From contig JAUVXW010000003.1 in assembly GCA_030603385.1 (NCBI GenBank), positions 96,001 to 160,000 on the forward strand: 64,000 nucleotides of DNA, given 5' to 3'. The notes beneath the pieces were generated by a model that did not search any database, was not told where the DNA came from, and worked only from the letters and a program-made list of their open reading frames with translations. The DNA comes from Promethearchaeota archaeon. Its GTDB lineage: Archaea > Asgardarchaeota > Lokiarchaeia > Sigyniarchaeales > SOKP01. The position numbers and the translations under genes are program-made. Positions 9,959 to 25,381 of this stretch are shown piece by piece. Within the stretch, counting starts at the first letter, position 1. Each line of letters opens with the position of its first letter.

Positions 9959-11722
9959 TTAATTATCATAAACTAAGGTCTCTGATTCTTTTTGTTCTAA
10001 TGCCTTCTTTTGCATCCAAACAGGGGGATTCACACACCAAATGTAATGTCCCTCTTCGATTGTTATTTTATGAGGCGTTTTACGCATACATTCTTTCGTT
10101 CTTGCATCTGAAATACACCGGGGATTAAAAGTACATCCTGAAGGAGGTGCAATTGGACTCGGAACCTCACCCTTAATAACAAACTTAATTTCTTTATCGC
10201 TAGGATCAAGCTCAGTTCTTGAAGCTAATAATGCTTGAGAATAAGGATGAGTAGTATTGGAAAATATTTGATCAGTCTCCCCAACCTCAACGAATTTGCC
10301 AAGATACATAACCGCAACTCTATCGGCAATGTGATTAACAACAGCTAAGTTGTGTGTTATAAATAAAAATCCGTAACCATAAGTTTTCTGCAACGCTTTT
10401 AACAAATTAAGAATTTGAGCTTGAACTGAAACATCTAGAGCGGATGTAGGCTCATCTAAAATTATTAATTCCGGATTACTTGCGAGGGCTCTCGCAATGA
10501 TAATTCTTTGTTTTTGACCACCTGAAAACTCATGAGGGAAGCGATCCATATGTTCTCGCTTTAAGGAAACTTCATCTAACAGTTTTAACACTCGTCTTCT
10601 AATTTCTTCTTTCTTGGTAATCCCTAATAAATTCCGCAGCGGTTCTGCTATGATATTAACAACTTTCATTCGAGGATTTAATGATGCATCAGGATCTTGA
10701 AAAACGATTTGAATTTTTTGTCTTAGAAATTTTGCATAATCATTAGGAATAGGTTCACCATTAAATATAATTTCACCTGCTTCTTTTGGAACTAATCCTA
10801 AAATAGCTTTCGCAATGGTAGTTTTTCCACAGCCACTTTCTCCTACTAAACCTACAGTTTCGCCAGTATTTATATTGAAAGTGACACCATCAACAGCTTT
10901 AACGGATCCAAACTGTCTTTTTAACATTCCTCCAATCAAAGGATAATAGACTTTTAAATTTCTTACTTCTAATAATTTTTGATTTTTTTCAAGAATATTG
11001 ATGTCTCTGTATTGATCGAAAGCTAAGTTGGATTGAGCTAAAATTTTTACGATAATGCTTACTATTATTGTGATTACTACCCCCCACACAAGATGAGTAA
11101 AAAAACCTTGGATGAAAGCTGCCTCTTTTAATTCAAATATGTGCGCCAAGTAATAGAATCCGGGTATTATCGTTATCATGATAATGGTATTTTTATTTGT
11201 TAGAAACTGGGCTTTATTTCCCCAATTTATGAAAAAACCATTAATACCAACTATAATCAACATTATTAAAAAAAGCGCCAAACCAGCTGAATATACATCG
11301 TCTTTTTCACTGGTGACCATAAGTCTTACTACATCATTAGTAATTCTCAATAAAAAACCCAAAGCATATAACATAGCCTGAAAACTAATGATAAGAATAG
11401 AAGATTCTATAAATTCTTTATTAGCTGATTTCGATACTATAATTGAGGATATCCCTATCGTTATCAAAATAACTATAAGATCAGAAATTATGGATAATGT
11501 AAATCCTGCTCCAAGAAAATAGAGAAATATGAATTTAAAAGAAATGTTAAGGAAAAACCAAATCAAATTCACAATGATTACAAAAGAATCATTCCAATCT
11601 TTTCTTTTCGCATATGCCTTTAAAAAAGACACCCCATAAAAAAGTACTAAAATAGAGATGAGAAATCCAATAACTAACTCAGATAAAAATAATCCCGTGG
11701 ATATATTTGATGGTATTTGCAT
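9959..11722 (-). CDS. oppF: Oligopeptide/dipeptide ABC ATPase (OppF/DppF type) fused to an N-terminal polytopic membrane domain
   Basis: GESGCGKT, FQDP, FSGGQKQR, ILDEPTSALD, THPY and C-terminal Cys cluster; first ~230 aa hold about 6-7 hydrophobic segments. Confidence 0.9.
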   Translation of the reverse strand: MQIPSNISTGLFLSELVIGFLISILVLFYGVSFLKAYAKRKDWNDSFVIIVNLIWFFLNISFKFIFLYFLGAGFTLSIISDLIVILITIGISSIIVSKSANKEFIESSILIISFQAMLYALGFLLRITNDVVRLMVTSEKDDVYSAGLALFLIMLIIVGINGFFINWGNKAQFLTNKNTIIMITIIPGFYYLAHIFELKEAAFIQGFFTHLVWGVVITIIVSIIVKILAQSNLAFDQYRDINILEKNQKLLEVRNLKVYYPLIGGMLKRQFGSVKAVDGVTFNINTGETVGLVGESGCGKTTIAKAILGLVPKEAGEIIFNGEPIPNDYAKFLRQKIQIVFQDPDASLNPRMKVVNIIAEPLRNLLGITKKEEIRRRVLKLLDEVSLKREHMDRFPHEFSGGQKQRIIIARALASNPELIILDEPTSALDVSVQAQILNLLKALQKTYGYGFLFITHNLAVVNHIADRVAVMYLGKFVEVGETDQIFSNTTHPYSQALLASRTELDPSDKEIKFVIKGEVPSPIAPPSGCTFNPRCISDARTKECMRKTPHKITIEEGHYIWCVNPPVWMQKKALEQKESETLVYDN

Positions 11723-11799
11723 ATTAAATCCTTTTTTTCATAATTTTTCAATGTTTATATATTAATATTTTATTTTTCATTTACTCATTTATCTAAGAA

Positions 11800-14727
11800 T
11801 TAATTTTCTGCTTCTTTTATTGAGATCTCAGCGATATCCTTGTATTCAGGGTCATAAAGATGGCACGCTACAAAATAATCTGGTTCGATTTCTATGCTTT
11901 TAGGGGCCTTTGAATCACATGGTTCAAAACAATATTGACATCGAGGATGAAACCTGCAACCTGAAGGGGGATAAATCAAATTCGGTACCATTCCTGGTAT
12001 TACATCAAGCAATTCCCTTTTCTTCCCTATAACTGGTACAGATGATATAAGTCCCCGTGTATATGGATGATAGGGTGTGATAAATAATTTTTCTATGTCA
12101 CCATATTCAACGATGAATCCACTATACATTACAGCTACGCGATCACACATTTTAGAAATAATTCCTAAATCATGAGTGATAAAAAGTATCGAGGTGTTAT
12201 ATTTTTTCTTGAGGTTTTTCATTAATTGTAATATCTGGTTTTGAATTGTGACATCTAGGGCCGTAGTAGGCTCATCAGCAATTAATAGTTTAGGACTACA
12301 AGCAAGACCCATTGCGATTTGAACACGTTGTCGCATTCCACCACTTAATTCATGTGGATATCTATCAAATATTATTCGTGGAACGGGTATATTTAAATCT
12401 TTTAATATTTTTCTACTCCATTTTCTCGCAATATCATAGATACTTGTATTTTTTTTAACTGCTTCAATTAACAACTCATCCTCCATATGAAGACGATAAA
12501 CTTCGGCGATTTGATCCCCAATTTTATATACAGGATTTAACGAGTTAAGGGGATCTTGAAAAATCATAGTGATTTTATTTCCTCGATATTTTAGAAACTC
12601 TTCTTCAGTTTTATGATGCAGATCTTCTCCCTTAAAATATACTCTCCCACTCTTAATTTCACCTGGAGGACGAACCAATCGAAGGATAGATAACGCAGTC
12701 ACAGATTTACCACATCCTGTTTCTCCAACAAGACCGAGAGTCTCACCTTCATATATCTTAAACGAAACACCTTCTACTGCTTTAACTACGCCTTCCACTG
12801 TATAAAAATAGGTTGTGAGATCTTGAACATCTAAGATAGCCTCTTTTCTCTCTACCATAGTGTCTTGAAGCTGACTTTCTTCATAAGGTTTAAAAGCAGC
12901 ACTGAATCTATCGCTCATTTTCTCAGTAGAATCTGGCATAATCTGGATCCTTAAGGAACCAAGAATTGAAATAATATATATACCTGAAGCGACTAATAAT
13001 GGAATCCGGAGATCTGTAAAGCTATAATGATAAGAAATAATAAGGGATTGGAATAAACCTAGTATAAGACTCACACCTACGGTAGCTAAGTATACAACAA
13101 TTAGAGCGATTATCACAAATTTAAAAGATTCGGAAAATTTTCGTTTATACACCTTTCGAACTATTAATGTACCAATAATAATATTACTAACTGATATGAG
13201 AAATTCAATATATAAAATTGGGATTAACATATCATATTCTGTTGGCCAAACATGATCTGCCCAAAAAACGGAAAAGATTCTAGAATATGAAAACCCAAAT
13301 TCTGAGAAGGCTATAAATATAGAAACTCTACTGGCTACACTAAAAAAGAATAAAACTAAAGCAACCCTAGCGGCTTTCTTTTTAACAAATGATGCATTTT
13401 TCATTGACGCATCCCACATTTTTATTGATGTAGCATACCACCATATAATCCTAATACCTAACGTAAACATCACAATCGAGAGAATGGTAATGAATGTTAT
13501 GTTTAAGATAAATATCTCATTAATCAAGATAAATATATATAAATAGATTACAAGAAATGGTACAACCCAAATCCAATACGTTATAAATCCTCCAAAAAAA
13601 GCAGCGTGTTGAAGTAGTATTTTTGATGCCCGTTTGTTGACAGGATTCATCTTATTAAATAGATATGTAATAGATAGATCTGCAACAACCGTAAAAAGAG
13701 CACTCATACCACTTAGAAAAAGTACTCCTACCAAAGTATTTGAACTTAGAAGTATTTTAAATATCGAAATTATTATTATCGGTAAGCCCCATATTAATCC
13801 TATGATAATCTTATTTGAAGTAGTATTGAATTTACTCTCTAATAATGAAACATCATCTATTGATTGAGATTTATCAAATTTCCTTAAAAAATATATATAA
13901 ATTTTAAGGGAAATCCCTTGCGGAAAACGACGATCTTTATCCCCACTAATATCCTCTTGATCTTCTGATAGAAGTTCTTTTTCATTTGTATCCTGTTTTC
14001 TATTAAACTTCTTTAATTCAGATTCTAACAATTCTTTAACTCTTTTTTCACTTTTTTCACTAGCGTCAGGCAACAGTTTGCTTTTCAGTAAATTAAAAAA
14101 GACAGTAATATATAATCCTGTTACTACAATAGTTAATACTCGAATATCTTGCATAATAATTTGATATCCAAGCCATTTATGTATATATACTTCAAATATA
14201 ACAAGCTGAATAAACCAAATACCAAATGCAATAAACGCTCCTCCGTACATAGAATTTTTAAGTACCATTTTTTCTATTCGTTTCTCATCCACCAAGGTTC
14301 TATTAATTATTGATGTAATAATGATGCAAATGAAAACTACTCCAAAACTCCATAATACACCTAAGCTGAATTTATCAGGATAATTAGGAAACGAAGGATC
14401 CCTCAGTGAAATTTGAAGTAGTGTAATTGAAAGAAAAATTGCTGAAAAAGCCCATGCTATTATCATTAAAAAAAAAATATATTTCTTGAAACTGTAATTT
14501 TGGGGTCTTTCTTCATTTAAAACCTGTGAATAACCAAATTTTCCCAAAAATGGTTTATGGAGAAAGAAAAAGATCGTTACCATTATAGCAAAGTATAATA
14601 CATCATTATTTAGAATCCTAAATATATACCCATACATCCCTAAGGTTTCAAATATCATTCTGATACCCAATATGATACCGAAAATAATTAAGCTGGTTAC
14701 CAATGAACTTAATTGATATATTCTCAC
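11800..14727 (-). CDS. oppD: Oligopeptide/dipeptide ABC ATPase (OppD/DppD type) fused to a ~620-aa polytopic membrane region
   Basis: GETGCGKS, LSGGMRQR, IADEPTTALD, HPYT, GCRFHPRC...VACH; ATPase domain starts at about aa 630; frame stays open upstream to 14865, so the true start may be near 14853. Confidence 0.9.
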   Translation of the reverse strand: MRIYQLSSLVTSLIIFGIILGIRMIFETLGMYGYIFRILNNDVLYFAIMVTIFFFLHKPFLGKFGYSQVLNEERPQNYSFKKYIFFLMIIAWAFSAIFLSITLLQISLRDPSFPNYPDKFSLGVLWSFGVVFICIIITSIINRTLVDEKRIEKMVLKNSMYGGAFIAFGIWFIQLVIFEVYIHKWLGYQIIMQDIRVLTIVVTGLYITVFFNLLKSKLLPDASEKSEKRVKELLESELKKFNRKQDTNEKELLSEDQEDISGDKDRRFPQGISLKIYIYFLRKFDKSQSIDDVSLLESKFNTTSNKIIIGLIWGLPIIIISIFKILLSSNTLVGVLFLSGMSALFTVVADLSITYLFNKMNPVNKRASKILLQHAAFFGGFITYWIWVVPFLVIYLYIFILINEIFILNITFITILSIVMFTLGIRIIWWYATSIKMWDASMKNASFVKKKAARVALVLFFFSVASRVSIFIAFSEFGFSYSRIFSVFWADHVWPTEYDMLIPILYIEFLISVSNIIIGTLIVRKVYKRKFSESFKFVIIALIVVYLATVGVSLILGLFQSLIISYHYSFTDLRIPLLVASGIYIISILGSLRIQIMPDSTEKMSDRFSAAFKPYEESQLQDTMVERKEAILDVQDLTTYFYTVEGVVKAVEGVSFKIYEGETLGLVGETGCGKSVTALSILRLVRPPGEIKSGRVYFKGEDLHHKTEEEFLKYRGNKITMIFQDPLNSLNPVYKIGDQIAEVYRLHMEDELLIEAVKKNTSIYDIARKWSRKILKDLNIPVPRIIFDRYPHELSGGMRQRVQIAMGLACSPKLLIADEPTTALDVTIQNQILQLMKNLKKKYNTSILFITHDLGIISKMCDRVAVMYSGFIVEYGDIEKLFITPYHPYTRGLISSVPVIGKKRELLDVIPGMVPNLIYPPSGCRFHPRCQYCFEPCDSKAPKSIEIEPDYFVACHLYDPEYKDIAEISIKEAEN

Positions 14728-14869
14728 TAATGATTCCCCTTTAAAAGAAAACTTTACAAGAAAAATTAAAATCAGTAATAATAGCAGTAGTGAAAATAGA
14801 GATTCAATTATAGCATATCCGTAATTACCAACTTGAAATGTTATTCCAATAATTTTTAATCCCTCTTAT

Positions 14870-15859
14870 TTATATATGTAATCGAGGATCTAAAGCATCC
14901 CTCAATCCATCACCTATTAACATAAACCCAATAGCTGTAATTGCAATAAAAAGCCCGGGCCAAAAAACTGCATAATATGCACCCCAATGACCCCTCCCAT
15001 AATTGATATCAGTGCCCCAATCTGCAAAAGATTCATCTCCTAATCCCAAGAAAGCAATGCCTACAAAACCTAAAATTGCACCTCCCATTGCTCCGAAGAA
15101 ACCAATGATGATAGGAGACATTGCATTTGGCAAAACATGTCTAAACATTACTTTAAATTTTTCCGCCCCACTAGTTATTGCAGCCTCGACATAGACATTC
15201 TGTTTTACTTGCAGCACTAGGGCTCTTACCCATCGAGTAGATCCTGGTATACTAAAAAGGCCGAAAAGTATCAGTATGTTATATAAACTATTACCAATGA
15301 GGGGTGCTACAATAATTACAAGAATTAATACAGGAAAAGAAAACCAAAAATCACAAAAACGCATTATTATTGAATCTATTTTTCCACCAAAATATGCAGA
15401 TATCGTCCCTACAGAAAGCCCTCCAAGGGTACCAATTATAACGGGTAAAGCCGCCGCTGTTAGTGCTGTTCTTGCGCCCCAAATTATTCTTCCAAGAATA
15501 TCAAATCCATATTCTGTTGTGCCTAATGGGTGTTCTGGCGAGGGGGGAAGGAATGGTGTCTCAGGGAGAAAATCGGGTGGTGTTAAATGATCTATTGTAA
15601 ATGTAGTTAACCAAGGAGCATACATACCCATAAAAGCAATGAATAAGATCATTACCATTCCAGCTATTGTCAAAGGCGTAAGTAGGCGTCTAAATAATTT
15701 CCTTTTAGATTTTATTTTCCCTATTTCAAATTCAGTAGCTTCAAATTCTGGATCCCGCCATCCAGGTACTAAGTAGAATTTTAACAATCTGGAGAACTTA
15801 TTCTTTTTGTCTGCTTGAGATTCATATCTTTTGGTTTCTTCTACAGAAATTTGCTTCAG
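14870..15859 (-). CDS. oppC: Oligopeptide ABC permease (OppC/DppC)
   Basis: PPSPEHPLGT..G.DI, EAA loop YVEAAITSGA, GDGLRDALDPR; ORF track starts at TTG 15787, but the frame is open to a CTG at 15859 behind an SD-like GGAAGTGA. Confidence 0.92.
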   Translation of the reverse strand: MKQISVEETKRYESQADKKNKFSRLLKFYLVPGWRDPEFEATEFEIGKIKSKRKLFRRLLTPLTIAGMVMILFIAFMGMYAPWLTTFTIDHLTPPDFLPETPFLPPSPEHPLGTTEYGFDILGRIIWGARTALTAAALPVIIGTLGGLSVGTISAYFGGKIDSIIMRFCDFWFSFPVLILVIIVAPLIGNSLYNILILFGLFSIPGSTRWVRALVLQVKQNVYVEAAITSGAEKFKVMFRHVLPNAMSPIIIGFFGAMGGAILGFVGIAFLGLGDESFADWGTDINYGRGHWGAYYAVFWPGLFIAITAIGFMLIGDGLRDALDPRLHI

Positions 15860-15883
15860 TTTTATTCACTTCCTTTATTTTTT

Positions 15884-16951
15884 TTAATACAAAATTCTTG
15901 GATCTATAATTGTATAGGCAACATCTGCAATGAGAGTTCCTGATATTATAATAATCGTTGAAAAAACAAGAAGTCCATTTATTACTAAATAGTCACCGCT
16001 TGTTATAGCTATCAGCATGGTGTATCCAAATCCAGTATAGTTAAATGTAACTTCTACATATAATGACCCTAATAGAGCTCCTGCGGTCCCTGCTATAACG
16101 AGATGACTGGTAGGGAGTATCGCATTTCGAAGAGCGTGTTTATTAATGACGTCTTTTTCCAAAACACCTTTAGCACGCGCAGTTCTAATATAATCCTGAT
16201 CCAGCACACCTAGCATACTAGATCGAGTCTGCCTCGTAATCCCAGATAAAGATACAAAAATCATACAAATTACTGGAAGAATTAAATGAACAAGTGTATC
16301 CCATAAATAAATCTGATCATTATACAAAATACTATCAATTAGTCTAAATCCTGTACCACTCCCTCCTGATGGAACCGGAGTATTCAATATCGGATTATTA
16401 GGTAATAACACCTCAATAAAAAATTTCTCATGGGTAAATGTCCTTAATTCAGAGCCAATAAATAATTGTAGCAGGGTGGCAATATAAAAGATTGGAAATC
16501 CTGCTCCAACGATTGCTATTCCTCTAATTAATGAATCTTTTGGCGTATCTTTATGTTTTGCAGAGGTAACCCCAAGTTTAATACCGATAATTGGTACTAT
16601 TATAATCGAAAATAGCATCAACTCTATCGTCTTTGGAAAAATCTGAGCAATTAATTCAATTACAGGTGTGTTTTCGGCTATAACAAACGATTCACCCCAA
16701 TCTCCAGCGAAAAACCTTCTAAGATATATACCGAGTTGTACATACCATGGATCGTAGAAACCAGATCTTCGCAATTCTGCTTCATATCTAGCACGGTCTA
16801 CCACAGTCCCAGGAATCTTATTCAATGCAGGATTAATAGACATCTGGTGAGATAAAATCCATGTAAATATCAATACTGCTATAAGAATAGGAAACATTAG
16901 TAAAATTCGTTTAATAACATATTTTATCATATTTCGGGCTTGACGAGTCAT
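15884..16951 (-). CDS. oppB: Oligopeptide ABC permease (OppB/DppB)
   Basis: KYVIKRIL, GDWGES, P.TIEL, QDYIRTARAKG, KHALRNA, IDPRI. Confidence 0.95.
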   Translation of the reverse strand: MTRQARNMIKYVIKRILLMFPILIAVLIFTWILSHQMSINPALNKIPGTVVDRARYEAELRRSGFYDPWYVQLGIYLRRFFAGDWGESFVIAENTPVIELIAQIFPKTIELMLFSIIIVPIIGIKLGVTSAKHKDTPKDSLIRGIAIVGAGFPIFYIATLLQLFIGSELRTFTHEKFFIEVLLPNNPILNTPVPSGGSGTGFRLIDSILYNDQIYLWDTLVHLILPVICMIFVSLSGITRQTRSSMLGVLDQDYIRTARAKGVLEKDVINKHALRNAILPTSHLVIAGTAGALLGSLYVEVTFNYTGFGYTMLIAITSGDYLVINGLLVFSTIIIISGTLIADVAYTIIDPRILY

Positions 16952-17128
16952 TTTTTTCCTCCTTTTTCATAAGTCATAATTTAAAAAGAAGTTAAGCTTT
17001 GAGCTTCTTTATTATATGTACTTCTTATTTTTAAAAAATATAAAATTAACATTTTTTTTTCTTATTTCTAAAGATTGAATTTAAAAAAAATTCACAATAT
17101 TTAATAATTACGATTTAATTTATGATAA

Positions 17129-17140
17129 TTACGTTCGTAA
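17129..17140. promoter_or_regulatory. Palindromic operator-like site TTACGTTCGTAA in the divergent oppB/oppA promoter
   Basis: Identical 12-mer at 21249-21260; lies just upstream of the BRE-TATA at 17153-17166. Confidence 0.6.
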
Positions 17141-17152
17141 TCCGTGTATTTT

Positions 17153-17166
17153 GAAAACTTTAAATA
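17153..17166 (+). promoter_or_regulatory. BRE-TATA promoter of oppA
   Basis: gaaaactttaaata, matching the archaeal purine-rich BRE plus TTTAAA box. Confidence 0.55.
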
Positions 17167-17266
17167 GTTAAATGTCGTAACCTTATATTATCTTTACGAA
17201 GTAAAGTAAATTTAGAAAAAATATCTACTTAAAACAAAAAAGGTAATACGATAAGGAGAAAAAAAA

Positions 17267-19747
17267 ATGAATAAATCTACAAAAAGTATAGCTTTTTTCT
17301 TATTATTATCGTCAATAATCCTTCCAATTCTTCCAACAATTACAGTAGCTCAAGAAGAGAACATCGTTTTTAAAGTGTCTGCTTCGGCATTGCCAGATGA
17401 ATGGGACCCCGTAGTTACAGATTGGTACAATGTAATATATGGATCATACGCGGTATTTGCGGTCCAGTATCCCATTGGAACACCTGCGTATTACACCGCT
17501 GGAACACTAGGTCCAATAGAGGATGAGTGGGTCGGAATACTCGCTACTGATTGGGAACTTGAACGTTGGCCATCCGAGGAAAATAGCGCAGATCCACCAT
17601 TTAATAACTCAGGTGGAATAAGAACAGCTACATTTACACTTCGAGAGAATGTGACATTCCACGATGGATCCGATTGGAACGCTACAGTATGGAAATGGAA
17701 TATCGATAGAATGAATATTATTTCCGGAAATTATACCGGTAAATGTCGAAACACAGATGATAATGAAGCTGAAGGAAATCTTATGAACACCATTATCGTA
17801 GAAGATTATAAAACCTATTTTACAGAAACATGGAATATGACAAAATTTGACTCTCCATATCTTGGACTTATTCCGCCTGATCTGGGAAAAGAACCTAAGG
17901 TTACCGATTATGCCTATTATAATCTTGGACCTAATGCGTCCCTTGTCGAATATCCCGGCGTCGATGATATTTTACCAAATAATACTATACGCAATCCTGC
18001 CCCTTATGGAGGCTGGGATTATGTATCGGCTGCTGCCATACATTATGCGCCTTATGATAGATATCCTATTGTAGACTACGTGGAGATCCTTGAAAACCCA
18101 AAATCAGGAGGAAAGATTAAGGTTTACTTTAACCACTGGACCACTTCTGGACTAGCTGGGTGGGTGAATATGCCTATGCTTTCATACCATTCATATAGAA
18201 ATAGTTACACCACTAGAGGTATTTACGGGTATGAAAACGGCGTTGATGATGACCGAAATGCTGGACCAGTCACTCACATGATTGGCACAGGTCCCTACAT
18301 TTATATAGAGCACGATGAAACAGGTACACCCGCAGGGGGTTATATGTTAAAAAATGAGAATTACTGGAATAAAACCCTTCTTGAAGCCGATGGTTGGTTT
18401 GATGTTGATAGATACGAAGTTATTAATTTCCCTACAGGTCAATTAGGAGAAGATTCTAAAAATACAGCCATGCTTACACATGCTATAGATTTTGCATACG
18501 ATTCCATGTATATGCCTTTAGATTATGATGCTGTGTTAAGAAACAAAAATATTAGGTATGAGTCTACTGGGGCTACAACATATAAAACGAATATCGTACT
18601 GAATAGCATCAATGAAACATGGTGGGCATGGCCTGGGTATGATGCTTGGAGGAAAGTTCAATATCCTCGTGCTGGTGATAAACCTGCTGGTGGTGTTCCT
18701 CGAGCAATGCGAAAAGCGATGGGTTATGCGTTTAATTATGATCTTATGATACATACTGCTTTAAATGATCGCGCAGTTCGAGGTGGTGGGGTGCTAGGTA
18801 GCCCCAATATATATTATAATGACAGTATTCCCTTGGCAGATTATAATGTAACGAAAGCACGAGAAATTCTGCTTACCACTGAGAGTGACATATCAGGAGA
18901 AGTTTATACTACCATAGATGTTAATAGTTCATATTGGCCCAATCCCGATCTTTATAATTTCAGTAAAATGTGTGCCGATAGAAGTTTGACCGCAAGTAGC
19001 TCGGATGCTGATTGGCGATATATTGCTGACAACAATCCAATATACACACTTAACTTTTATTGGGATTCTGCTCATGAAGATGTAAAGAGTGTACTTCTAA
19101 CTTCTCTTCGAAATATTGGGTGTACTTTAAAAGACAAAACTGGAGCTACAAATAGGGTTACCACTATAATTTGGGATACAGTCCGTATTGGTCATTTGAC
19201 CACATTTGATGGAATCTATAGTCTCTTTTCTTGTGGTGCGTGGGTAATGGACGAGGACTTATCTCATACATCCCCTGAGTTAAATCTCTTTTGGGCTCAT
19301 GTTGATCCCGATAAAGGGAGATGGCGAACTTTGGGCGGTGGAGGGATCACGAGTTGGCACTATTGGGGTAACTTCGGATTTAATTTTAATGAACGAGCTG
19401 ATTATTATAATGATCGTATGTGGACTTCCGATCCAATGGAAAGAAAAATCTGGATTAATAAATTAGCACACGTCGAGCAAACCGTTGTTTTCCCAAAAAT
19501 CTGGTGTTATGAAGCATTGGGCGGATGGGCTCTATGGAAAGACTGGGAATTTTTTACAGTAAAGAACACAGGAGGACATAATACGGGTCTCTTTGGAGGC
19601 ATTTCAATCAGTTTCTTGAGATATGTAGGTCTTCCAGAAGATTTCGCATTAATTCCCGGAGCTCCATTACTCGTTACATTGACCATTTCAGCAGTTTCGA
19701 CACTCGGTATAATATATGCGATAATGAGAAAGAAAAAACTCAAGTAG
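17267..19747 (+). CDS. oppA: Family 5 (Opp/Dpp) extracellular solute-binding protein with signal peptide and C-terminal membrane anchor
   Basis: Signal peptide MNKSTK..hydrophobic..TVA; LATDW, FTLRENVTFHDGS, IGTGPY, MRKAMGYAFNY; C-terminal IPGA + TM helix + RKKKLK (Loki-CTERM-like); SD aggaga upstream. Confidence 0.93.
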   Translation: MNKSTKSIAFFLLLSSIILPILPTITVAQEENIVFKVSASALPDEWDPVVTDWYNVIYGSYAVFAVQYPIGTPAYYTAGTLGPIEDEWVGILATDWELERWPSEENSADPPFNNSGGIRTATFTLRENVTFHDGSDWNATVWKWNIDRMNIISGNYTGKCRNTDDNEAEGNLMNTIIVEDYKTYFTETWNMTKFDSPYLGLIPPDLGKEPKVTDYAYYNLGPNASLVEYPGVDDILPNNTIRNPAPYGGWDYVSAAAIHYAPYDRYPIVDYVEILENPKSGGKIKVYFNHWTTSGLAGWVNMPMLSYHSYRNSYTTRGIYGYENGVDDDRNAGPVTHMIGTGPYIYIEHDETGTPAGGYMLKNENYWNKTLLEADGWFDVDRYEVINFPTGQLGEDSKNTAMLTHAIDFAYDSMYMPLDYDAVLRNKNIRYESTGATTYKTNIVLNSINETWWAWPGYDAWRKVQYPRAGDKPAGGVPRAMRKAMGYAFNYDLMIHTALNDRAVRGGGVLGSPNIYYNDSIPLADYNVTKAREILLTTESDISGEVYTTIDVNSSYWPNPDLYNFSKMCADRSLTASSSDADWRYIADNNPIYTLNFYWDSAHEDVKSVLLTSLRNIGCTLKDKTGATNRVTTIIWDTVRIGHLTTFDGIYSLFSCGAWVMDEDLSHTSPELNLFWAHVDPDKGRWRTLGGGGITSWHYWGNFGFNFNERADYYNDRMWTSDPMERKIWINKLAHVEQTVVFPKIWCYEALGGWALWKDWEFFTVKNTGGHNTGLFGGISISFLRYVGLPEDFALIPGAPLLVTLTISAVSTLGIIYAIMRKKKLK

Positions 19748-19774
19748 AATAGTAAATTTAAAGACTAAATAAAT

Positions 19775-19795
19775 CTTTTTTCTTTTTTTTTTTTA
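19775..19795 (+). terminator. Oligo-T terminator after oppA
   Basis: Two T runs (6 and 12 nt) about 30 nt after the stop codon. Confidence 0.5.
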
Positions 19796-19829
19796 ATGTC
19801 AAACAACACTCAACAGACAAAAATAAATA

Positions 19830-20532
19830 GGCTCTTTGAGCTTAATAGAAAGATTTATCCTCGTTAAATCCTTATTTTATTTAATGCCAACAAAGCCTTC
19901 TGAAATTAAAAAGGCTACAATCCATACTTATTGGAATTCTAAAGAAAGATTGATCTGCCCCTTATGTTCTTCTCAACTACAACATGAATTTAATAATGGA
20001 GGCAGGAAAATTATTACTTGAAAGGGACCTGTATGGGTATTGACTAATTATTATAGCTATATTAATCCTAAGTGTGAAATGCACGAGGCATTTCCAGTAG
20101 CATATCATTCAGTCATTCAACGGAAGCGATTTTCCTTGGAAGTATGGGCAAAAGTGATACAACATCATTTCAAGCATCAACTTAATTATTCCACCATCGT
20201 CAAACTCATGTGGGACGATTGGGACGTGTCAATTTCGAGGAACACGGTGAGAAACATCTGCGAATTTTTTGAAATGGCAGGAAAGCAATACACGGATAAA
20301 AATTCCTAAAAGGGGTAGAATCAAGCGGGAGAATCATTTTATCGCTTGATGGTGCCCAACCAGTTAAGAACGAGCCTTCTCTTTGGGTCTTTTCTGAGAA
20401 ATTGAAATGCTCTATGGCGTTCCCATCGTAGGCATCATTTCCGACAAGCAAAAAAGCATTGTGAATGGTGTCAAGCAATTCAAACCAGATATCCCACATG
20501 CATATTGCCAATACCACTTCCTTAACCACGTT
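19830..20532 (+). mobile_element. Truncated insertion sequence remnant (ISL3/MULE-like DDE)
   Basis: Candidate left end GGCTCTTTGAG at 19830 followed by a decayed transposase; no matching right inverted repeat seen; ends in a T run. Confidence 0.7.
19884..20532 (+). pseudogene. Transposase pseudogene
   Basis: CPLC Zn-finger start, in-frame TGA at 20019, HTH-like ISRNTVRNIC, frameshift near 20300, then ILSLDGAQP (first Asp), a second frame break, IISDKQ (second Asp) and CQYHF (CxxH); catalytic Glu region absent. Confidence 0.85.
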
Positions 20533-20631
20533 TTTTTTTGTTTTTGAAACTATCTTATGATTTTAAAAACAATAGTAAAAATATAGGGGATTATTAATCC
20601 TTAAATAATATCTAACTGAAGAATTAATTAG

Positions 20632-21147
20632 CTATATTTTTTTTCTGCCTACACTATATCGTTTAAGAAGCATACCACATATAGCCCCTGAGATGGCTAT
20701 TTCAAACAAAATAATTATGTCAAGCCATCCTCTAATATTACCAAATTTTAGGATAATCGGTTCTGTTGAAAAGCCAAACATAATAGCATAAAATATGAAA
20801 CCTTCTGCAATAAGAAGAGGTACCAGCCAGATGGATGCTTTAATTCCATAATGAGCTATTTCTTGTTTATATGTTAACACAAAACATACCAAAAACAACA
20901 CTAAAGCGGGTAAGAAGAAAGTTTTCAAATATGTTGTCCAAGTCCAAAAAAGTATGGTTCTATCCATATCAGTATAAGAGATCCATTCTTCATAATAATA
21001 ATCATACATCATAATGTTGGCGATAATTCCGTAATAACATAAAAAAGCAAAAATATACAAAAAAATAACACCCCCTTGTCGTCCCCAGTCAATTTTTATA
21101 TGACCTTTTGCTTTATAATCACTTTTTTCAATCTTCTCTGTTTCCAT
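20632..21147 (-). CDS. Hypothetical 171-aa membrane protein (about 4 TM helices)
   Basis: ATG start, four hydrophobic segments, basic C-terminus. Confidence 0.8.
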   Translation of the reverse strand: METEKIEKSDYKAKGHIKIDWGRQGGVIFLYIFAFLCYYGIIANIMMYDYYYEEWISYTDMDRTILFWTWTTYLKTFFLPALVLFLVCFVLTYKQEIAHYGIKASIWLVPLLIAEGFIFYAIMFGFSTEPIILKFGNIRGWLDIIILFEIAISGAICGMLLKRYSVGRKKI

Positions 21148-21248
21148 ATGTTAAAACCTAGAAATTTCAAAATTAAATAAAACTTAACCTAAAAAATTAT
21201 TTTACAAATTTAAATTCTTTTCATTTTAGAATGCTATTTTTCAAAATT

Positions 21249-21260
21249 TTACGTTCGTAA
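21249..21260. promoter_or_regulatory. Palindromic site TTACGTTCGTAA upstream of the 171-aa membrane protein gene
   Basis: Identical to 17129-17140; upstream of a minus-strand gaaaagaatttaaatt BRE-TATA-like element at about 21207-21222. Confidence 0.6.
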
Positions 21261-21264
21261 AGTT

Positions 21265-23076
21265 TTACCTTACTAAGAAATCTTTAATTCGACTATCCCA
21301 AGTATTATATTTAGATGTTCCGTCCTTCCACTTTTGTTTTGATGCTTCTTTTAAGAATTCAATTCCCGAATTTTTAGGCAATTCTTCGATAATTTCAATA
21401 TACCGTGGTACATGAAAGTAGGCGAGATTATGAAACAAATAGTCGCTAAGTTCTTCATGGGTGATAGTGCGATTTTTCGCTTTCACAGCAATGATTTTAA
21501 AATTAATATCAGGATCATTTCCATTCCGAACAGGTATGACAGAAGATTCAATGATATTTGGGTGTGAATTTGCTACTCGTTCAATATCCTTTGTAAAGAT
21601 TACTTCATTGTTTTTGGATATGATCTCGTTTCTTTTCCCCTTATAATAAACATATCCCTCATAGTCAATATAACCAAAATCACCCGTGTAAACCCAATTA
21701 TCCCTTCCTATTTTTACATCAATTTTTCCAGGTTGTCTATAATATTCAAAAATTGCTCCGGATGCTCTTCGTACTGCTATTTCTCCAACGTTATTTGGTC
21801 CTGGAGGCATTTCTGTTCCATTAGGGCCGATAATTTTTAATTCTATGAAATCTAATGGTGTTCCAATTGACCCCATTTTTCCACCTTCAGAACCTAGTTT
21901 ATTGATAGTTACACCAATTCCTTCTGCATGTGACCAGCACTCATGTAAGTGGATTCCAAACCTTTCTTCAAAAGCATTCCATAAATCCATTCCTGCGCCA
22001 AAACCGTAAGCAAACTTGATAGAATGAACTCGATCATTGACTTTGGGCTTTTGATACAATAGATTTGTCAGATGGCTACTGAAATAACAAAAACAAGTGG
22101 GTTCAAACTTATGGATTTCCTCCCAGAATGTTGATGCATTAAAATCTTCAGTAATTATAAGCGATTTATCATAGACAATTGAAGGTAATACCACAAAAAA
22201 ATGGGCAGTGCTACTAGATAAAGACATAGGGCAATAGATTTTGGATGCTTTGTCTAATCCTATCTTCATCAATTCAAATCCTAAAGCAATACCTGCTAAT
22301 ACAGTATTTCTATACACAACTCCTTTGGGTTGTCCAGTCACACCACTAGAATATTGAATTTCTGTAGGATCATCACTATACATATTAATCTCGGGATTTT
22401 GAGAATTTGATGTAATAATTGACTTAAAATTGGCATAGTGATTCTCAAAATTAAAATCAACAGGAGCATTGTGTATAAGTACTTTCTTGATCTTCGGTAG
22501 ATTTTTACTAACTTCTATGTATTTGCTAAGAAATTTATAATCAATAATCAAAACTTCTGTATCACTGTCTCTTAATATATATTCTAAATGATTGTCACTC
22601 AAAAATGTATCAATAGGTACAAATACACATCCGGCTTTAGCTATTCCAAACCATGTAAAAAGGAATTCTGGGCAAGTTTCCATAAGTAACGAAATTTTGG
22701 GTGCTTTTAAATCCAATTTATTAGTCAATTCAAGAAGTCCATGAGCAAGTTTGTTGGAATTATTATTAATTTCTTCATAAGAATAGCTTTTGTCTTTAAA
22801 GTAAAGATATGGTTGATCTTTATTTGCCTTTGCTTTAATTTCTAATAATCTCGGAAGTGTAGCGTTCTCTATTCCAAAATTTCTTATTATTCTCGAACGC
22901 TCATCATTTCTGCTTATCTTTAAAGACCCTTCCTCTATTTCAATAATTACTTCTTCATTATCTTGGAATGGAAATAATTCATCTTTATAAACCTTGCTTG
23001 GAATATATATCCAAACACTTTTATAACCACCATTTCCAGATTTTTTTGTAGTTATTTTTCCTTTAGCTACTTTCAA
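21265..23076 (-). CDS. AbrB/MazE/SpoVT-like DNA-binding domain fused to a degenerate CaiC-like acyl-CoA ligase domain
   Basis: N-terminal KITTKKSG...SVWIYIPSKV..D..FPFQDNEEVIIEIEEGSLKI swapped-hairpin pattern; ANL fold with YSSGVTGQPKG and YTGD but eroded A5/A8/A10 motifs; TTG start behind gtga. Confidence 0.85.
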   Translation of the reverse strand: MKVAKGKITTKKSGNGGYKSVWIYIPSKVYKDELFPFQDNEEVIIEIEEGSLKISRNDERSRIIRNFGIENATLPRLLEIKAKANKDQPYLYFKDKSYSYEEINNNSNKLAHGLLELTNKLDLKAPKISLLMETCPEFLFTWFGIAKAGCVFVPIDTFLSDNHLEYILRDSDTEVLIIDYKFLSKYIEVSKNLPKIKKVLIHNAPVDFNFENHYANFKSIITSNSQNPEINMYSDDPTEIQYSSGVTGQPKGVVYRNTVLAGIALGFELMKIGLDKASKIYCPMSLSSSTAHFFVVLPSIVYDKSLIITEDFNASTFWEEIHKFEPTCFCYFSSHLTNLLYQKPKVNDRVHSIKFAYGFGAGMDLWNAFEERFGIHLHECWSHAEGIGVTINKLGSEGGKMGSIGTPLDFIELKIIGPNGTEMPPGPNNVGEIAVRRASGAIFEYYRQPGKIDVKIGRDNWVYTGDFGYIDYEGYVYYKGKRNEIISKNNEVIFTKDIERVANSHPNIIESSVIPVRNGNDPDINFKIIAVKAKNRTITHEELSDYLFHNLAYFHVPRYIEIIEELPKNSGIEFLKEASKQKWKDGTSKYNTWDSRIKDFLVR

Positions 23077-23112
23077 AAAATTATCACTTTACTTTTTATT
23101 AGATAGAATGCT

Positions 23113-23124
23113 TTACTACCGTAA
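23113..23124. promoter_or_regulatory. TTAC-N4-GTAA site (TTACTACCGTAA) between the TATA box and the start of the AbrB-ligase gene
   Basis: Matches the motif at 17129 and 21249; minus-strand ggaaaacattttaaag BRE-TATA at 23147-23162. Confidence 0.5.
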
Positions 23125-23212
23125 TTTAAGAGAGTAATCACTCTTTCTTTAAAATGTTTTCCATAACTCAGTGTGATCTATCAGCAAATTTTGACATCAA
23201 TTTTGATTTATG

Positions 23213-23224
23213 TTACAGCAGTAA
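23213..23224. promoter_or_regulatory. Second TTAC-N4-GTAA site (TTACAGCAGTAA) upstream of the AbrB-ligase gene
   Basis: Exactly 100 nt from the 23113 site. Confidence 0.45.
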
Positions 23225-23302: not shown

Positions 23303-25234
23303 CTAAAGCTTTTGACCTATTGCATATCCCTCGTGAATTGCTTCTAACATTCTTCTAGCTTGTGAACAATCTCCTATCGCGTGTACAGTGGGTAATTTCT
23401 CCCTCAACATATTGAATAATTTATTTTGAGCTTCCATACCAGCAGCAATCACAACTGTATCAGCTTCAATTATTTCAGAGTTTCCTTCTCTTTCGATTTC
23501 TACTCCATCATCCGTTATTCTAATGACTTTAGAAGAAGTGTATTGTTTGATGCCCCATCTGGCTATTCTCATGGTGACTGACCATTTTGTTGCTGGGCCA
23601 ACATCTCGTGCAATCTTTGGCAACATTTCAACAATGGAAACATCCTTTCCTTGAGATCTTAGAAGCTCCGCCGTTTCACAGCCAATCATCCCCCCCCCTA
23701 TTATTACAACATTATCACCTGTGCTTGACATTCCCTTTAACACATCAACTGCCATAACAACATTTTCAGTGTTAATTCCTGGTATATCTGGAGTTATTGC
23801 TGTCGCACCAGTAGCTACGATAACCTCATCAGCGTTTTCCTTCAAAATAGAATCTACCGTTGCTTCTTTATTAAGCTGAACATTAATTTTTAATTTCTTC
23901 ATCTGATATATTAAGTAATGTGTTAAACAATTGGTCTCCTCCTTATGAGGGGCTAAGGACGCCGTTATTAAATTTCCTCCTAGCTGATCATTTTTCTCCC
24001 ATAGAGTCACTTTGTGACCTCTTAATGTTGCTACCCTTGCGGCTTCCATCCCAGCTGGACCACCACCAATAATGAGGATCTTTTTCAATTTTTCCGCTTT
24101 CTCTAATTTTTTACCTTCCTTACCCAATCCAGCGTTTACAGAACACACAATAGTTCCTGGACTAGCCATAGCATCAAAACAACGGCAACAAGCTATACAC
24201 ATATTAATATCGTCAAATTCACCTTTCATAGCTTTTTTTGGGAAATATGGATCAGTCAAAAATGGCCTGCCAAAATGTACCAAATCTGCTCTTCCGTCTC
24301 TTATAATCTCATTAGCAAATCGAGGATCATTGATTCTCCCTCCTGTCATAATAGGAACATTTATTATCTTTTTCATCGCTTCTGCTAAATATACAAATGC
24401 TCCCCTAGGAACTGACATAGGTAACATAGGTTTTGGTGATTCATGCCATCCTGCCCATGTGTGTATCACAGAAACTCCTGCTTGCTCTGCTAATTTTGCC
24501 ATAATTTGAGAATCCTCCAGAACTGTACCCCCATCTATGTATTCTTCAGCACTAATTTTATAGATTACAGGGAACTGGTTTTCAAGTTTTTTTCTAATAT
24601 TTTTAATAATTTCAACAATAAAAGTTGCCCGTTCTGCAGGAGATTTTCCTCCAAATCTATCAGTTCGTTTGTTGGTAAGAGGTGATCCGAATTGACTTAT
24701 TAAGTATCCTGTTGATCCCATTAATAATACACCTTTAAATCCTGCTTCAGCACTTCTTCTCGCAGAATCACCAAATCTTTCAACTAATTCTTCAACCTCT
24801 TCAGTAGATAATTCTCTTGGCATTTCACCTCTTCCTCTATAACCCGCAATGGGAGATGGTGCCACAGGTTGCATACCAGTAAGACCAGAATGGCAATATC
24901 TACCGCCATGTGATAATTCAATCATCGGAACAGATCCATTTTTATCAATGGCGTTCGCTAATTTTTTCAAACCTGGGGAATACTTATCATCATCAGTTGC
25001 TATCATACCTTTACCTGCTGTACTTCCTATCGGGTAGTCTATGATACCCATCTCTACACAAATAAAACCAGCACCTCCTTTAGCCCTTTCTACATAGTAA
25101 TCAACTAATTGGTCGGTTACATATCCATCGTAACCAAATCGGGTGTTCATAGGGGCCATCATTATTCTATTACTTATTTCAACATCTCCAATTGTTATTG
25201 GCTGAAATAAATATTTTACTTCTTCTACAACCAT
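23303..25234 (-). CDS. fadH: 2,4-dienoyl-CoA reductase-like NADH:flavin oxidoreductase (OYE barrel, 4Fe-4S, FAD domain)
   Basis: NRIMMAPM, YYVERAKGG, MGSTGYLISQF (FadH-type MGSxGY), GWHES, CIACCRC...CSVN, GGGPAGMEAA. Confidence 0.85.
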   Translation of the reverse strand: MVVEEVKYLFQPITIGDVEISNRIMMAPMNTRFGYDGYVTDQLVDYYVERAKGGAGFICVEMGIIDYPIGSTAGKGMIATDDDKYSPGLKKLANAIDKNGSVPMIELSHGGRYCHSGLTGMQPVAPSPIAGYRGRGEMPRELSTEEVEELVERFGDSARRSAEAGFKGVLLMGSTGYLISQFGSPLTNKRTDRFGGKSPAERATFIVEIIKNIRKKLENQFPVIYKISAEEYIDGGTVLEDSQIMAKLAEQAGVSVIHTWAGWHESPKPMLPMSVPRGAFVYLAEAMKKIINVPIMTGGRINDPRFANEIIRDGRADLVHFGRPFLTDPYFPKKAMKGEFDDINMCIACCRCFDAMASPGTIVCSVNAGLGKEGKKLEKAEKLKKILIIGGGPAGMEAARVATLRGHKVTLWEKNDQLGGNLITASLAPHKEETNCLTHYLIYQMKKLKINVQLNKEATVDSILKENADEVIVATGATAITPDIPGINTENVVMAVDVLKGMSSTGDNVVIIGGGMIGCETAELLRSQGKDVSIVEMLPKIARDVGPATKWSVTMRIARWGIKQYTSSKVIRITDDGVEIEREGNSEIIEADTVVIAAGMEAQNKLFNMLREKLPTVHAIGDCSQARRMLEAIHEGYAIGQKL

Positions 25235-25381
25235 GATTGCTTCTACCTTTTTATTATATAGTTTATATATTTCAACATGAATTTTATTAAAGTTTTCTAA
25301 TAATAATTAATACAATTTTTTCATTATCTTACCTAATATTTAAAACCAACTATTGTAAATTTACGGAAATATTGATAAATT

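Follow-up and report, generated by a model that had tools for sequence, protein, structure and literature searches.

An AbrB-like/ANL fusion protein as candidate one-component regulator of a membrane-augmented Opp importer in Lokiarchaeia

We describe here a gene cluster at positions 9959-23224 of a 64,000-nucleotide (nt) stretch of DNA, the window, which covers positions 96,001 to 160,000 of contig JAUVXW010000003.1 (C6:96001-160000 in our contig numbering) from a Promethearchaeota archaeon of the Lokiarchaeia (assembly GCA_030603385.1; 3.89 Mb in 58 contigs). We consider it probable, at roughly two chances in three (about 0.68), that this locus is a conserved local Lokiarchaeial regulon, in which a one-component regulator made of an AbrB-like domain and an adenylate-forming ligase (ANL) domain acts through three operators on a PepT/Opp importer with membrane additions. 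More specifically, the N-terminal domain of the regulator (N-domain, about 57 residues, AbrB/MazE-like in its predicted model) would dimerise and bind the palindrome TTAC-N4-GTAA, and the ANL domain, which has lost the adenylation Lys, would act mainly as a sensor whose ligand is a carboxylic acid or the adenylate or CoA ester of that acid. A tandem site located 36 nt ahead of the regulator start codon would be placed for autorepression; a site upstream of the TATA-like box of p171, a gene for a protein with four transmembrane (TM) segments, would serve the control of that gene; and a site midway between the divergent promoters of oppA and oppBCDF would serve the control of the importer. The latter would be a PepT/Opp ATP-binding cassette (ABC) system to which are added a 7-TM module on OppF, a duplicated, composite region of about 13 TM on OppD that includes an OppF-like module, and a separate 4-TM subunit.

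The seven genes of the locus are all real. On the minus strand, oppB, oppC, oppD and oppF form a co-directional block, and oppA diverges from oppB across an intergenic region of 315 base pairs (bp). The genes are listed below, with domains from Pfam and TM segments from hydropathy.

9959-11722 (-): oppF, 587 residues; 7-TM N-terminal domain followed by ABC_tran (E 4e-36) and oligo_HPY
11800-14727 (-): oppD, 975 residues; N-terminal region of about 13 TM followed by ABC_tran and oligo_HPY
14870-15787 (-): oppC, 305 residues from a TTG; permease, BPD_transp_1
15884-16951 (-): oppB, 355 residues; permease, BPD_transp_1
17267-19747 (+): oppA, 826 residues; divergent, anchored family-5 solute-binding protein
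20632-21147 (-): p171, 171 residues, 4 TM, no Pfam family
21265-23076 (-): AbrB-like/ANL fusion gene, the regulator candidate, 603 residues; AMP-binding (E 3e-49) after an extra N-domain of about 60 residues

The annotation of open reading frames (ORFs) and Pfam domains revealed no second regulator gene at the locus besides the fusion gene.

The palindrome TTAC-N4-GTAA has four matches in the window, with 1.05 expected by chance, and none of the four is outside the three intergenic regions of the locus. In the whole genome we counted 77 matches, of which 15 are outside long ORFs; four of these 15 are at this locus, compared with about 0.01 expected for approximately 660 bp. In its strict form, TTACG-N2-CGTAA, the palindrome has only two occurrences in the 3.89 Mb, and both belong to this locus. 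The candidate operators (palindromes, given without strand) and the elements around them are the following.

17097-17108 (-): inferred TATA-like box of oppBCDF, within an alignment block that is conserved in four loci; distance to the palindrome about 20 nt
17129-17140: candidate operator site A, TTACGTTCGTAA, at the midpoint of the divergent oppA and oppB promoters
17160-17167 (+): inferred TATA-like box of oppA (alignment)
21249-21260: candidate operator site B, TTACGTTCGTAA, about 33 nt upstream of the conserved TATA-like box of p171 (about 21207-21214)
23113-23124: candidate operator site C, TTACTACCGTAA, 36 nt upstream of the regulator start codon
23126-23137: second, imperfect copy of the box (TTAC-TCTC-TTAA as reverse complement), separated from site C by 1 nt; relatives again show a tandem box
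23213-23224: fourth TTAC-N4-GTAA match, not conserved in relatives

Site A stands between two conserved TATA-like boxes, at about 20 nt from each. The spacing between site B and its TATA-like box is 22 nt in the related locus L014, about one helical turn shorter than here. The fourth match is probably due to chance. Outside ORFs elsewhere in the same genome, the palindrome was also seen at C24:45135, 22 nt upstream of a gelsolin-repeat gene, at C20:368, 79 nt upstream of an alpha/beta hydrolase gene, and at C58:16947, 109 nt upstream of a Na/Ca exchanger gene; these, too, are probably chance matches. An alpha/beta hydrolase is also found near the opp locus in L011. A scan for bacterial sigma-70 promoters and terminators gave 71 sites for 67 expected and is uninformative for an archaeon.

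Comparison with relatives revealed that the genes and the motif recur together. The order regulator gene, p171, divergent oppA and oppBCDF is found in four other loci, L009, L010, L014 and L026, and the N-terminal region of OppD is 58%, 65% and 41% identical to that of the window in L009, L010 and L014, respectively. In these three loci sites A, B and C are invariant at homologous places of intergenic alignments that have 64-78% mean identity. L026 has lost the FadH-like gene that lies beyond the regulator gene and has kept the regulator gene, p171, oppA and oppBCDF; site A is retained there, and the site at the promoter of the regulator gene has one mismatch. The palindrome had no match in two opp loci without the ligase gene, L011, which carries a TM-fused operon, and L013.

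The regulator gene is also found apart from opp genes. A paralogue about 45% identical is present in six GTDB genomes, with unrelated neighbours (a corrinoid protein with RACo, an HpaB-like enzyme, a CoA-transferase and others). An exact TTAC-N4-GTAA lies about 20-30 nt upstream of the start of four of the six (L020, L021, L022 and L024), the remaining two (L019 and L023) have an upstream palindrome with one or two mismatches, and most of the six loci have the tandem upstream box. A Helarchaeota-labelled homologue (L025) is located in a DUF35/thiolase/enoyl-reductase operon and has a tandem box 6 nt before its ATG. Over the paralogues and this homologue, the distance from palindrome to start codon is 6-36 nt. 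Of eight further loci with no opp genes close by, six have the palindrome just ahead of the AbrB-ligase gene and two have it with one or two mismatches. The palindrome thus accompanies the AbrB-ligase gene into other genomic contexts, which is the central result of the comparison. On the simplest reading, the protein is what binds the palindrome and it regulates its own gene; at the importer promoters of the Opp-linked subfamily, the operator would have been placed in addition. Homologues of the unusual parts of the locus are labelled Lokiarchaeota, Promethearchaeota, Thorarchaeota, Hodarchaeales, Helarchaeota and Hermodarchaeota, in addition to marine-sediment metagenomes that include the original LCGC14 Lokiarchaeum data.

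The N-domain (residues 1 to about 57) is 71-85% identical across most of 50 clusters, with 56-68% for the three most distant, and every named record of the AbrB-ANL family bears an Asgard label. Its AlphaFold2 model (pLDDT 73) is a beta-beta-alpha-beta-beta unit of about 50 residues with a basic loop, followed by a helix. All 13 PDB entries retrieved by VIA-align at Z of at least 2 have the AbrB fold (AbrB-type VapB, MazE, C68/C56 and Sso7c4-like proteins). The matches are weak (Z 2.1-3.5; Foldseek E 0.27 or worse, with AbrB-fold entries at the top ranks), and we consider the N-domain AbrB-like rather than a proven member of the family. Standalone homologues of the N-domain, of 63-117 residues and with the motif W-I/V/L-Y-I-P-S/A...F-P-F, occur in other Asgard families:

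L015:349-540 (-): standalone N-domain homologue
L016:330-539 (+): standalone N-domain homologue
L017:158-511 (-): standalone N-domain homologue

None of the three has a Pfam family, and they may represent an undescribed family of small DNA-binding proteins.

The rest of the 603-residue protein has a full-length AMP-binding/AMP-binding_C architecture (AMP-binding, PF00501, residues 79-438, E 2.9e-49), and its nearest solved relatives are the anthranilate-CoA ligase 4wv3, 4-coumarate-CoA ligase and FadD13. The catalytic motifs were read from 49 aligned family sequences and from the alignment of the ANL domain with seven canonical paralogues of the same genome. The A3 P-loop is kept (Y-S-S-G-V-T-G-Q-P-K-G here, the core G-x-x-G-x-P-K-G being invariant in 47-49 of the 49), and so are A5 Glu and A7 Asp. 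At the position of the A10 catalytic Lys (P-K-T-x-x-G-K) the window protein has Glu; of the 49 family sequences 32 have E, 6 have K, 3 have T and 2 have N, while the paralogue subfamily shows E-L and the Helarchaeota-labelled homologue Arg. The A8 Arg is replaced by Lys here (K 36, R 5 of 49), the hinge Asp by Glu in 42/49, and the A5 Thr by Ala here (T 15, N 10, V 7, A 5). The A3 and A5 motifs are relaxed in the Opp-linked subfamily, and the paralogue subfamily retains the canonical A3 and A8. Column conservation is 69-76% along the whole ANL domain. This pattern fits a ligand-binding pseudo-enzyme, possibly evolved from a bifunctional ancestor similar to BirA.

A preliminary description of this DNA had already proposed a regulon shared by the importer and a one-component regulator, composed of an AbrB domain and a degenerate ligase, with the palindrome in all three promoter regions. 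The conserved unit, and a conserved operator that follows the AbrB-ligase gene, strengthen the regulon itself well past what a single locus could tell, but lend no support to the cargo and the TM roles then attached to it (see below). The predicted fold goes, weakly, in the direction of an AbrB domain, for which no sequence profile speaks. The ligase is degenerate in its A10 Lys, A8 Arg and A5 Thr and intact in its P-loop, A5 Glu and A7 Asp. The palindrome is present in the three promoter regions, where one of its four matches, that at 23213, is not conserved in relatives.

The importer is unusual in its ATPases. ABC_tran and oligo_HPY occupy only the C-terminal 350 or so residues of OppD and OppF; in front of them OppF has an extra domain (residues 1 to about 250) with 7 TM segments in residues 1-230, and OppD an extra region (residues 1 to about 620) with about 13 TM segments in residues 1-600. 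The fusion of both ATPases to extra membrane domains, as first described, was thereby confirmed by Pfam, hydropathy and the lengths of the homologues. Indeed, the OppD N-terminal domain is covered by 43 homologue clusters, labelled Lokiarchaeota, Promethearchaeota or Thorarchaeota for the TM-fused OppD records, with identities in this domain down to 33%. Since the fusion is conserved across these 43 clusters at about 970-1040 residues in full-length members, we consider it a selected feature and reject mis-called or fused ORFs as the origin of the long ATPases. The OppF TM domain was matched by only 31 representative clusters among 1.84 billion proteins. A search with the 620-residue TM region of OppD gave matches in 5/201 sampled genomes, a figure that probably reflects low sensitivity and sparse sampling and is not read as absence.

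By hhalign, the OppD region consists of module 1 (residues 1-235), a charged loop, a repeat of module 1 (about 306-400) and an OppF-like module (about 407-576). Module 1 and the first part of module 2 are homologous (Prob 99.0, E 3e-18), and so are residues 407-576 or so of OppD, within module 2, and residues 13-149 of the OppF N-terminal domain (Prob 99.4, E 5e-22). Module 1 with OppF, and p171 with all three modules, gave a Prob below 2%; these pairs serve as internal controls against an artefact of composition, and a homology of p171 to the TM modules of the ATPases was rejected on this result. The AlphaFold2 model of the OppF module (residues 1-254; pLDDT 83, pTM 0.75) has 7 helices and no credible fold match in the PDB (best Foldseek E 1.4, TM-scores <=0.28); compared with ESM Atlas structures it reached TM-scores (by query) of at most 0.45, and a feature search returned unnamed clusters only. 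No Pfam family was found for the TM regions of OppD and OppF.

The same genome holds three more Opp operons, on C4, at a second place on C6 and on C51. That of C4 has an OppD of 632 residues with module 1 only and an OppF of 572 residues with the 7-TM module, the second C6 operon has shorter, 3-TM extensions, and the OppD of C51 has no extension. The TM-extended operon on C4 (L027, C4:256243-269621) is directly followed by two PFL-like glycyl-radical enzymes of 809 and 816 residues.

The 4-TM protein p171 had been described as an orphan. Its four TM segments stand; an orphan it is not, since it belongs to an Asgard family of 317 clusters that recurs in operons with Opp genes. The taxonomic labels among the matches listed are all Asgard, no member has a Pfam family, and strongly conserved motifs include K-I-D-W-G-R-Q-G-G and L-T-Y-K-E-D-I-P-H-Y-G-I-K-A-S-I-W. 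The family adjoins Opp genes in five arrangements. In the clade of the window the gene lies beyond oppA, under a promoter of its own; p263 (L011) and p204 (second C6 operon) each lie between oppA and oppB; p142 (L013) is directly upstream of oppB; and p196 (C51; E 1e-16 with the hidden Markov model of the family) lies between the solute-binding protein gene and oppB. Because the family also accompanies ATPases without TM extensions (OppD in C51, OppF in L013), the partner of p171 would most likely be the OppBC core or the OppA anchor. We propose that p171 is a recurrent Opp accessory and a putative fifth membrane subunit. As for OppA, the preliminary view of it as divergent, oversized and anchored was borne out: SBP_bac_5 (PF00496, E 1.3e-20, above the gathering score) covers only residues 324-538 of the 826, an N-terminal signal-like segment and a C-terminal TM segment are visible in the hydropathy profile, and there is no PDB sequence relative at E up to 1e-3.

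Several points weigh against a local regulon under the fusion protein. DNA binding by the regulator is a prediction, drawn indirectly from the conserved palindrome at its own promoter. The N-domain Z-scores of 2.1-3.5 are in a range where chance arrangements are common, the domain is without a Pfam match even at E 10 (AbrB-type PF04014 included), and its alignment profile gave two chance-level matches only against the PDB. Site B is missing in L026. In L009, L010 and L014 the flanks are syntenic as well (the molybdopterin enzyme, the FadH-like gene, a gene for a 950-residue protein and CTP synthase), and vertical inheritance could by itself account for the gene order. No known fold or family matches p171 or the extra TM domains, and any role given to them is purely inferred. 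A sceptical reader could go further and take the palindrome as the site of another, unlinked factor or as a promoter element, the AbrB-ligase as an enzyme with an N-terminal appendage, and the clustering as inherited synteny, given that the whole block from the molybdopterin enzyme to CTP synthase is syntenic in these three loci and that the AbrB homology has no support in sequence. We regard this as very unlikely, because the motif accompanies the AbrB-ligase gene into at least three unrelated neighbourhoods, is absent from both ligase-less opp loci, is in its strict form unique to this locus within the genome, and has no other regulator gene beside it. As for catalysis, the purifying selection on the ANL domain is strong and most nucleotide-pocket motifs are kept, so that the domain may still be catalytic. 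The fusion could be an active bifunctional enzyme and repressor of the BirA type, with its own acyl-adenylate or acyl-CoA product as co-regulator. The conserved P-loop (G-x-T-G-x-P-K-G), A5 Glu and A7 Asp, the even conservation over the full domain, the canonical A3 and A8 of the paralogue subfamily and the Helarchaeota-labelled homologue, co-directional with thiolase genes at 35 bp, would all suit such an enzyme. The A10 Lys, however, is absent from the window protein, from the six GTDB paralogues and from the Helarchaeota-labelled homologue (Glu, Leu or Arg), and present in only 6/49 sequences, and the Opp-linked subfamily has lost the A8 Arg too, with relaxed A3 and A5, so that we hold an active enzyme to be rather unlikely and prefer a regulator whose ANL domain mainly senses.

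The preliminary description had placed the locus in a neighbourhood of lipid catabolism, and the window does encode an acyl-CoA dehydrogenase, two enoyl-CoA hydratases, two thiolases, a MaoC hydratase, a FadH-like reductase and a molybdopterin enzyme, that is, acyl-CoA genes of the beta-oxidation type. It had further proposed import of a hydrophobic acid or lipid, with the extra TM domains handling or sensing this cargo and the dead ligase as the sensor of that acid or its CoA ester. The abundance of such genes around the locus, similar ones flanking it in relatives, the descent of the sensor domain from carboxylate-activating enzymes, the strong divergence of OppA, and the DUF35/thiolase/enoyl-reductase operon around the Helarchaeota-labelled homologue are consistent with that proposal. 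Nevertheless, acyl-CoA genes serve amino-acid fermentation too, and the neighbourhood therefore fits peptide use equally; an acyl-metabolite sensor that controls peptide uptake would be just as coherent. M24 peptidase is encoded inside the operon of L013, a TM-fused relative, and M28 peptidase near the paralogous C51 operon, which carries a p171-family gene. In a survey of Asgard transporters (PMC7997004), peptide uptake was assigned to all the PepT-family homologues except one, which was assigned to cellobiose. We found no support for the hydrophobic cargo, nor anything in favour of a cargo-handling role for the TM domains, which match no lipid-handling fold and have no detectable known fold at all. 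Import of a hydrophobic acid or lipid with these roles for the TM domains and the ligase is thus unlikely, and peptides are at least as likely a cargo as a hydrophobic acid.

With respect to known systems, the importer shares with the PepT/Opp-Dpp family (TC 3.A.1.5; OppABCDF, DppABCDF), whose substrates are peptides or else opines, nickel or oligosaccharides, a family-5 solute-binding protein, two BPD_transp_1 permeases and two oligo_HPY ATPases with the cysteine cluster. It differs in the N-terminal polytopic domains of both ATPases (7 and about 13 TM), in the fifth small membrane protein that recurs with the operon, and in an OppA of about 830 residues that is C-terminally anchored and too divergent for a PDB sequence match. 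The N-domain resembles AbrB, MazE, SpoVT and AbrB-type VapB in the predicted beta-beta-alpha-beta-beta unit of about 50 residues, the basic loop, the palindrome at its own promoter and the exclusively AbrB-fold structure matches, whereas sequence-profile similarity to them is absent and the fusion partner here is an ANL domain of about 540 residues, not a toxin-binding tail, a GAF domain (SpoVT) or an oligomerisation domain. Compared with ANL acyl/aryl-CoA ligases, the protein keeps AMP-binding, AMP-binding_C, the P-loop, the A5 Glu and the A7 Asp but has Glu for the A10 Lys, Lys for the A8 Arg, no A5 Thr and an added N-domain of DNA-binding type. Enzyme-derived one-component regulators are known, such as the biotin ligase and repressor BirA, the pseudo-phosphoribosyltransferase PurR of B. 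subtilis, the ROK repressors and MocR/GabR. They have in common with our candidate a DNA-binding domain joined to an enzyme-fold sensor, and an operator at their own promoter and at adjacent targets; here, however, the sensor would have the ANL fold and the DNA-binding domain would be AbrB-like.

Literature searches found no description of an AbrB-ANL fusion or of a TM-fused Opp system. Tentatively, and at somewhat less than even odds, we suggest that AbrB-ANL proteins are the first transcription factors built on the adenylate-forming-ligase fold, Asgard-wide, reading a carboxylate, acyl-adenylate or acyl-CoA through a crippled pocket, and that the one described here controls an undescribed importer subclass with membrane-embedded nucleotide-binding domains and a required 4-TM subunit. 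Should the ANL domain prove to do nothing but sense, the enzyme-derived regulators would gain a fold that is new among them. Asgard archaea are the closest prokaryotic relatives of eukaryotes, and to our knowledge almost no pair of transcription factor and operator is known in them. This locus offers a directly testable candidate pair, consisting of a 12-bp palindrome, three defined promoters and a soluble protein of 603 residues, and the sensor domain suggests a shortlist of ligands, namely acids, ATP/AMP, CoA and acyl-CoA. The importer, with its TM-anchored ATPases and proposed fifth membrane subunit, appears to be an Asgard-specific elaboration of Opp; because peptides and amino acids are believed to sustain these organisms, it bears on how they feed.

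Parts of the locus are represented in sediment RNA. Contigs from three metatranscriptomic libraries, 90-99% identical to the window, cover oppA, oppB, oppD, the regulator gene, the FadH-like gene and the downstream gene for the 950-residue protein. The start of one oppA RNA contig, at 17185, follows the inferred TATA box by about 20 nt, a weak hint only, as contig ends are not transcript ends. Among the contigs matched none covers p171, from which we draw no conclusion.

Beyond the regulator gene, at 23303-27631, the FadH-like reductase (Oxidored_FMN and Pyr_redox_2) is divergently paired with the molybdopterin oxidoreductase. This pair is kept beside the regulator gene in L009 and L014, L010 shows the FadH-like gene only, and L026 is without it. 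On the other side, directly downstream of oppF, lies a gene for a protein of 950 residues with no Pfam family and no TM segment (6796-9648, minus strand). A gene of this kind (949-953 residues) follows the TM-extended oppF in L009, L010, L011, L012 and L014, always before a convergent CTP synthase gene, and is absent from L013, whose OppF is without the TM module. The 950-residue protein may belong to the importer system, or the pattern may be inherited synteny only.

The oppC ORF encodes 305 residues, compared with about 330 in relatives. Upstream of it (15788-15883) an in-frame stretch is open for 27 codons and contains no ATG, GTG or TTG; the gene may use a non-canonical start (ATT/ATA), or its product may have a shortened N-terminus. 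Finally, the spacer between oppA and p171 measures 885 bp here and 125-547 bp in relatives, and contains one further feature:

19827-20547 (+): transposase-like remnant, frameshifted, between the 3' ends of oppA and p171

The translation of this remnant includes a D-G-A-Q-P stretch and ends with H-A-Y-C-Q-Y-H-F-L-N-H, and short fragments related to it are present on contigs C50 and C44 of the same genome.

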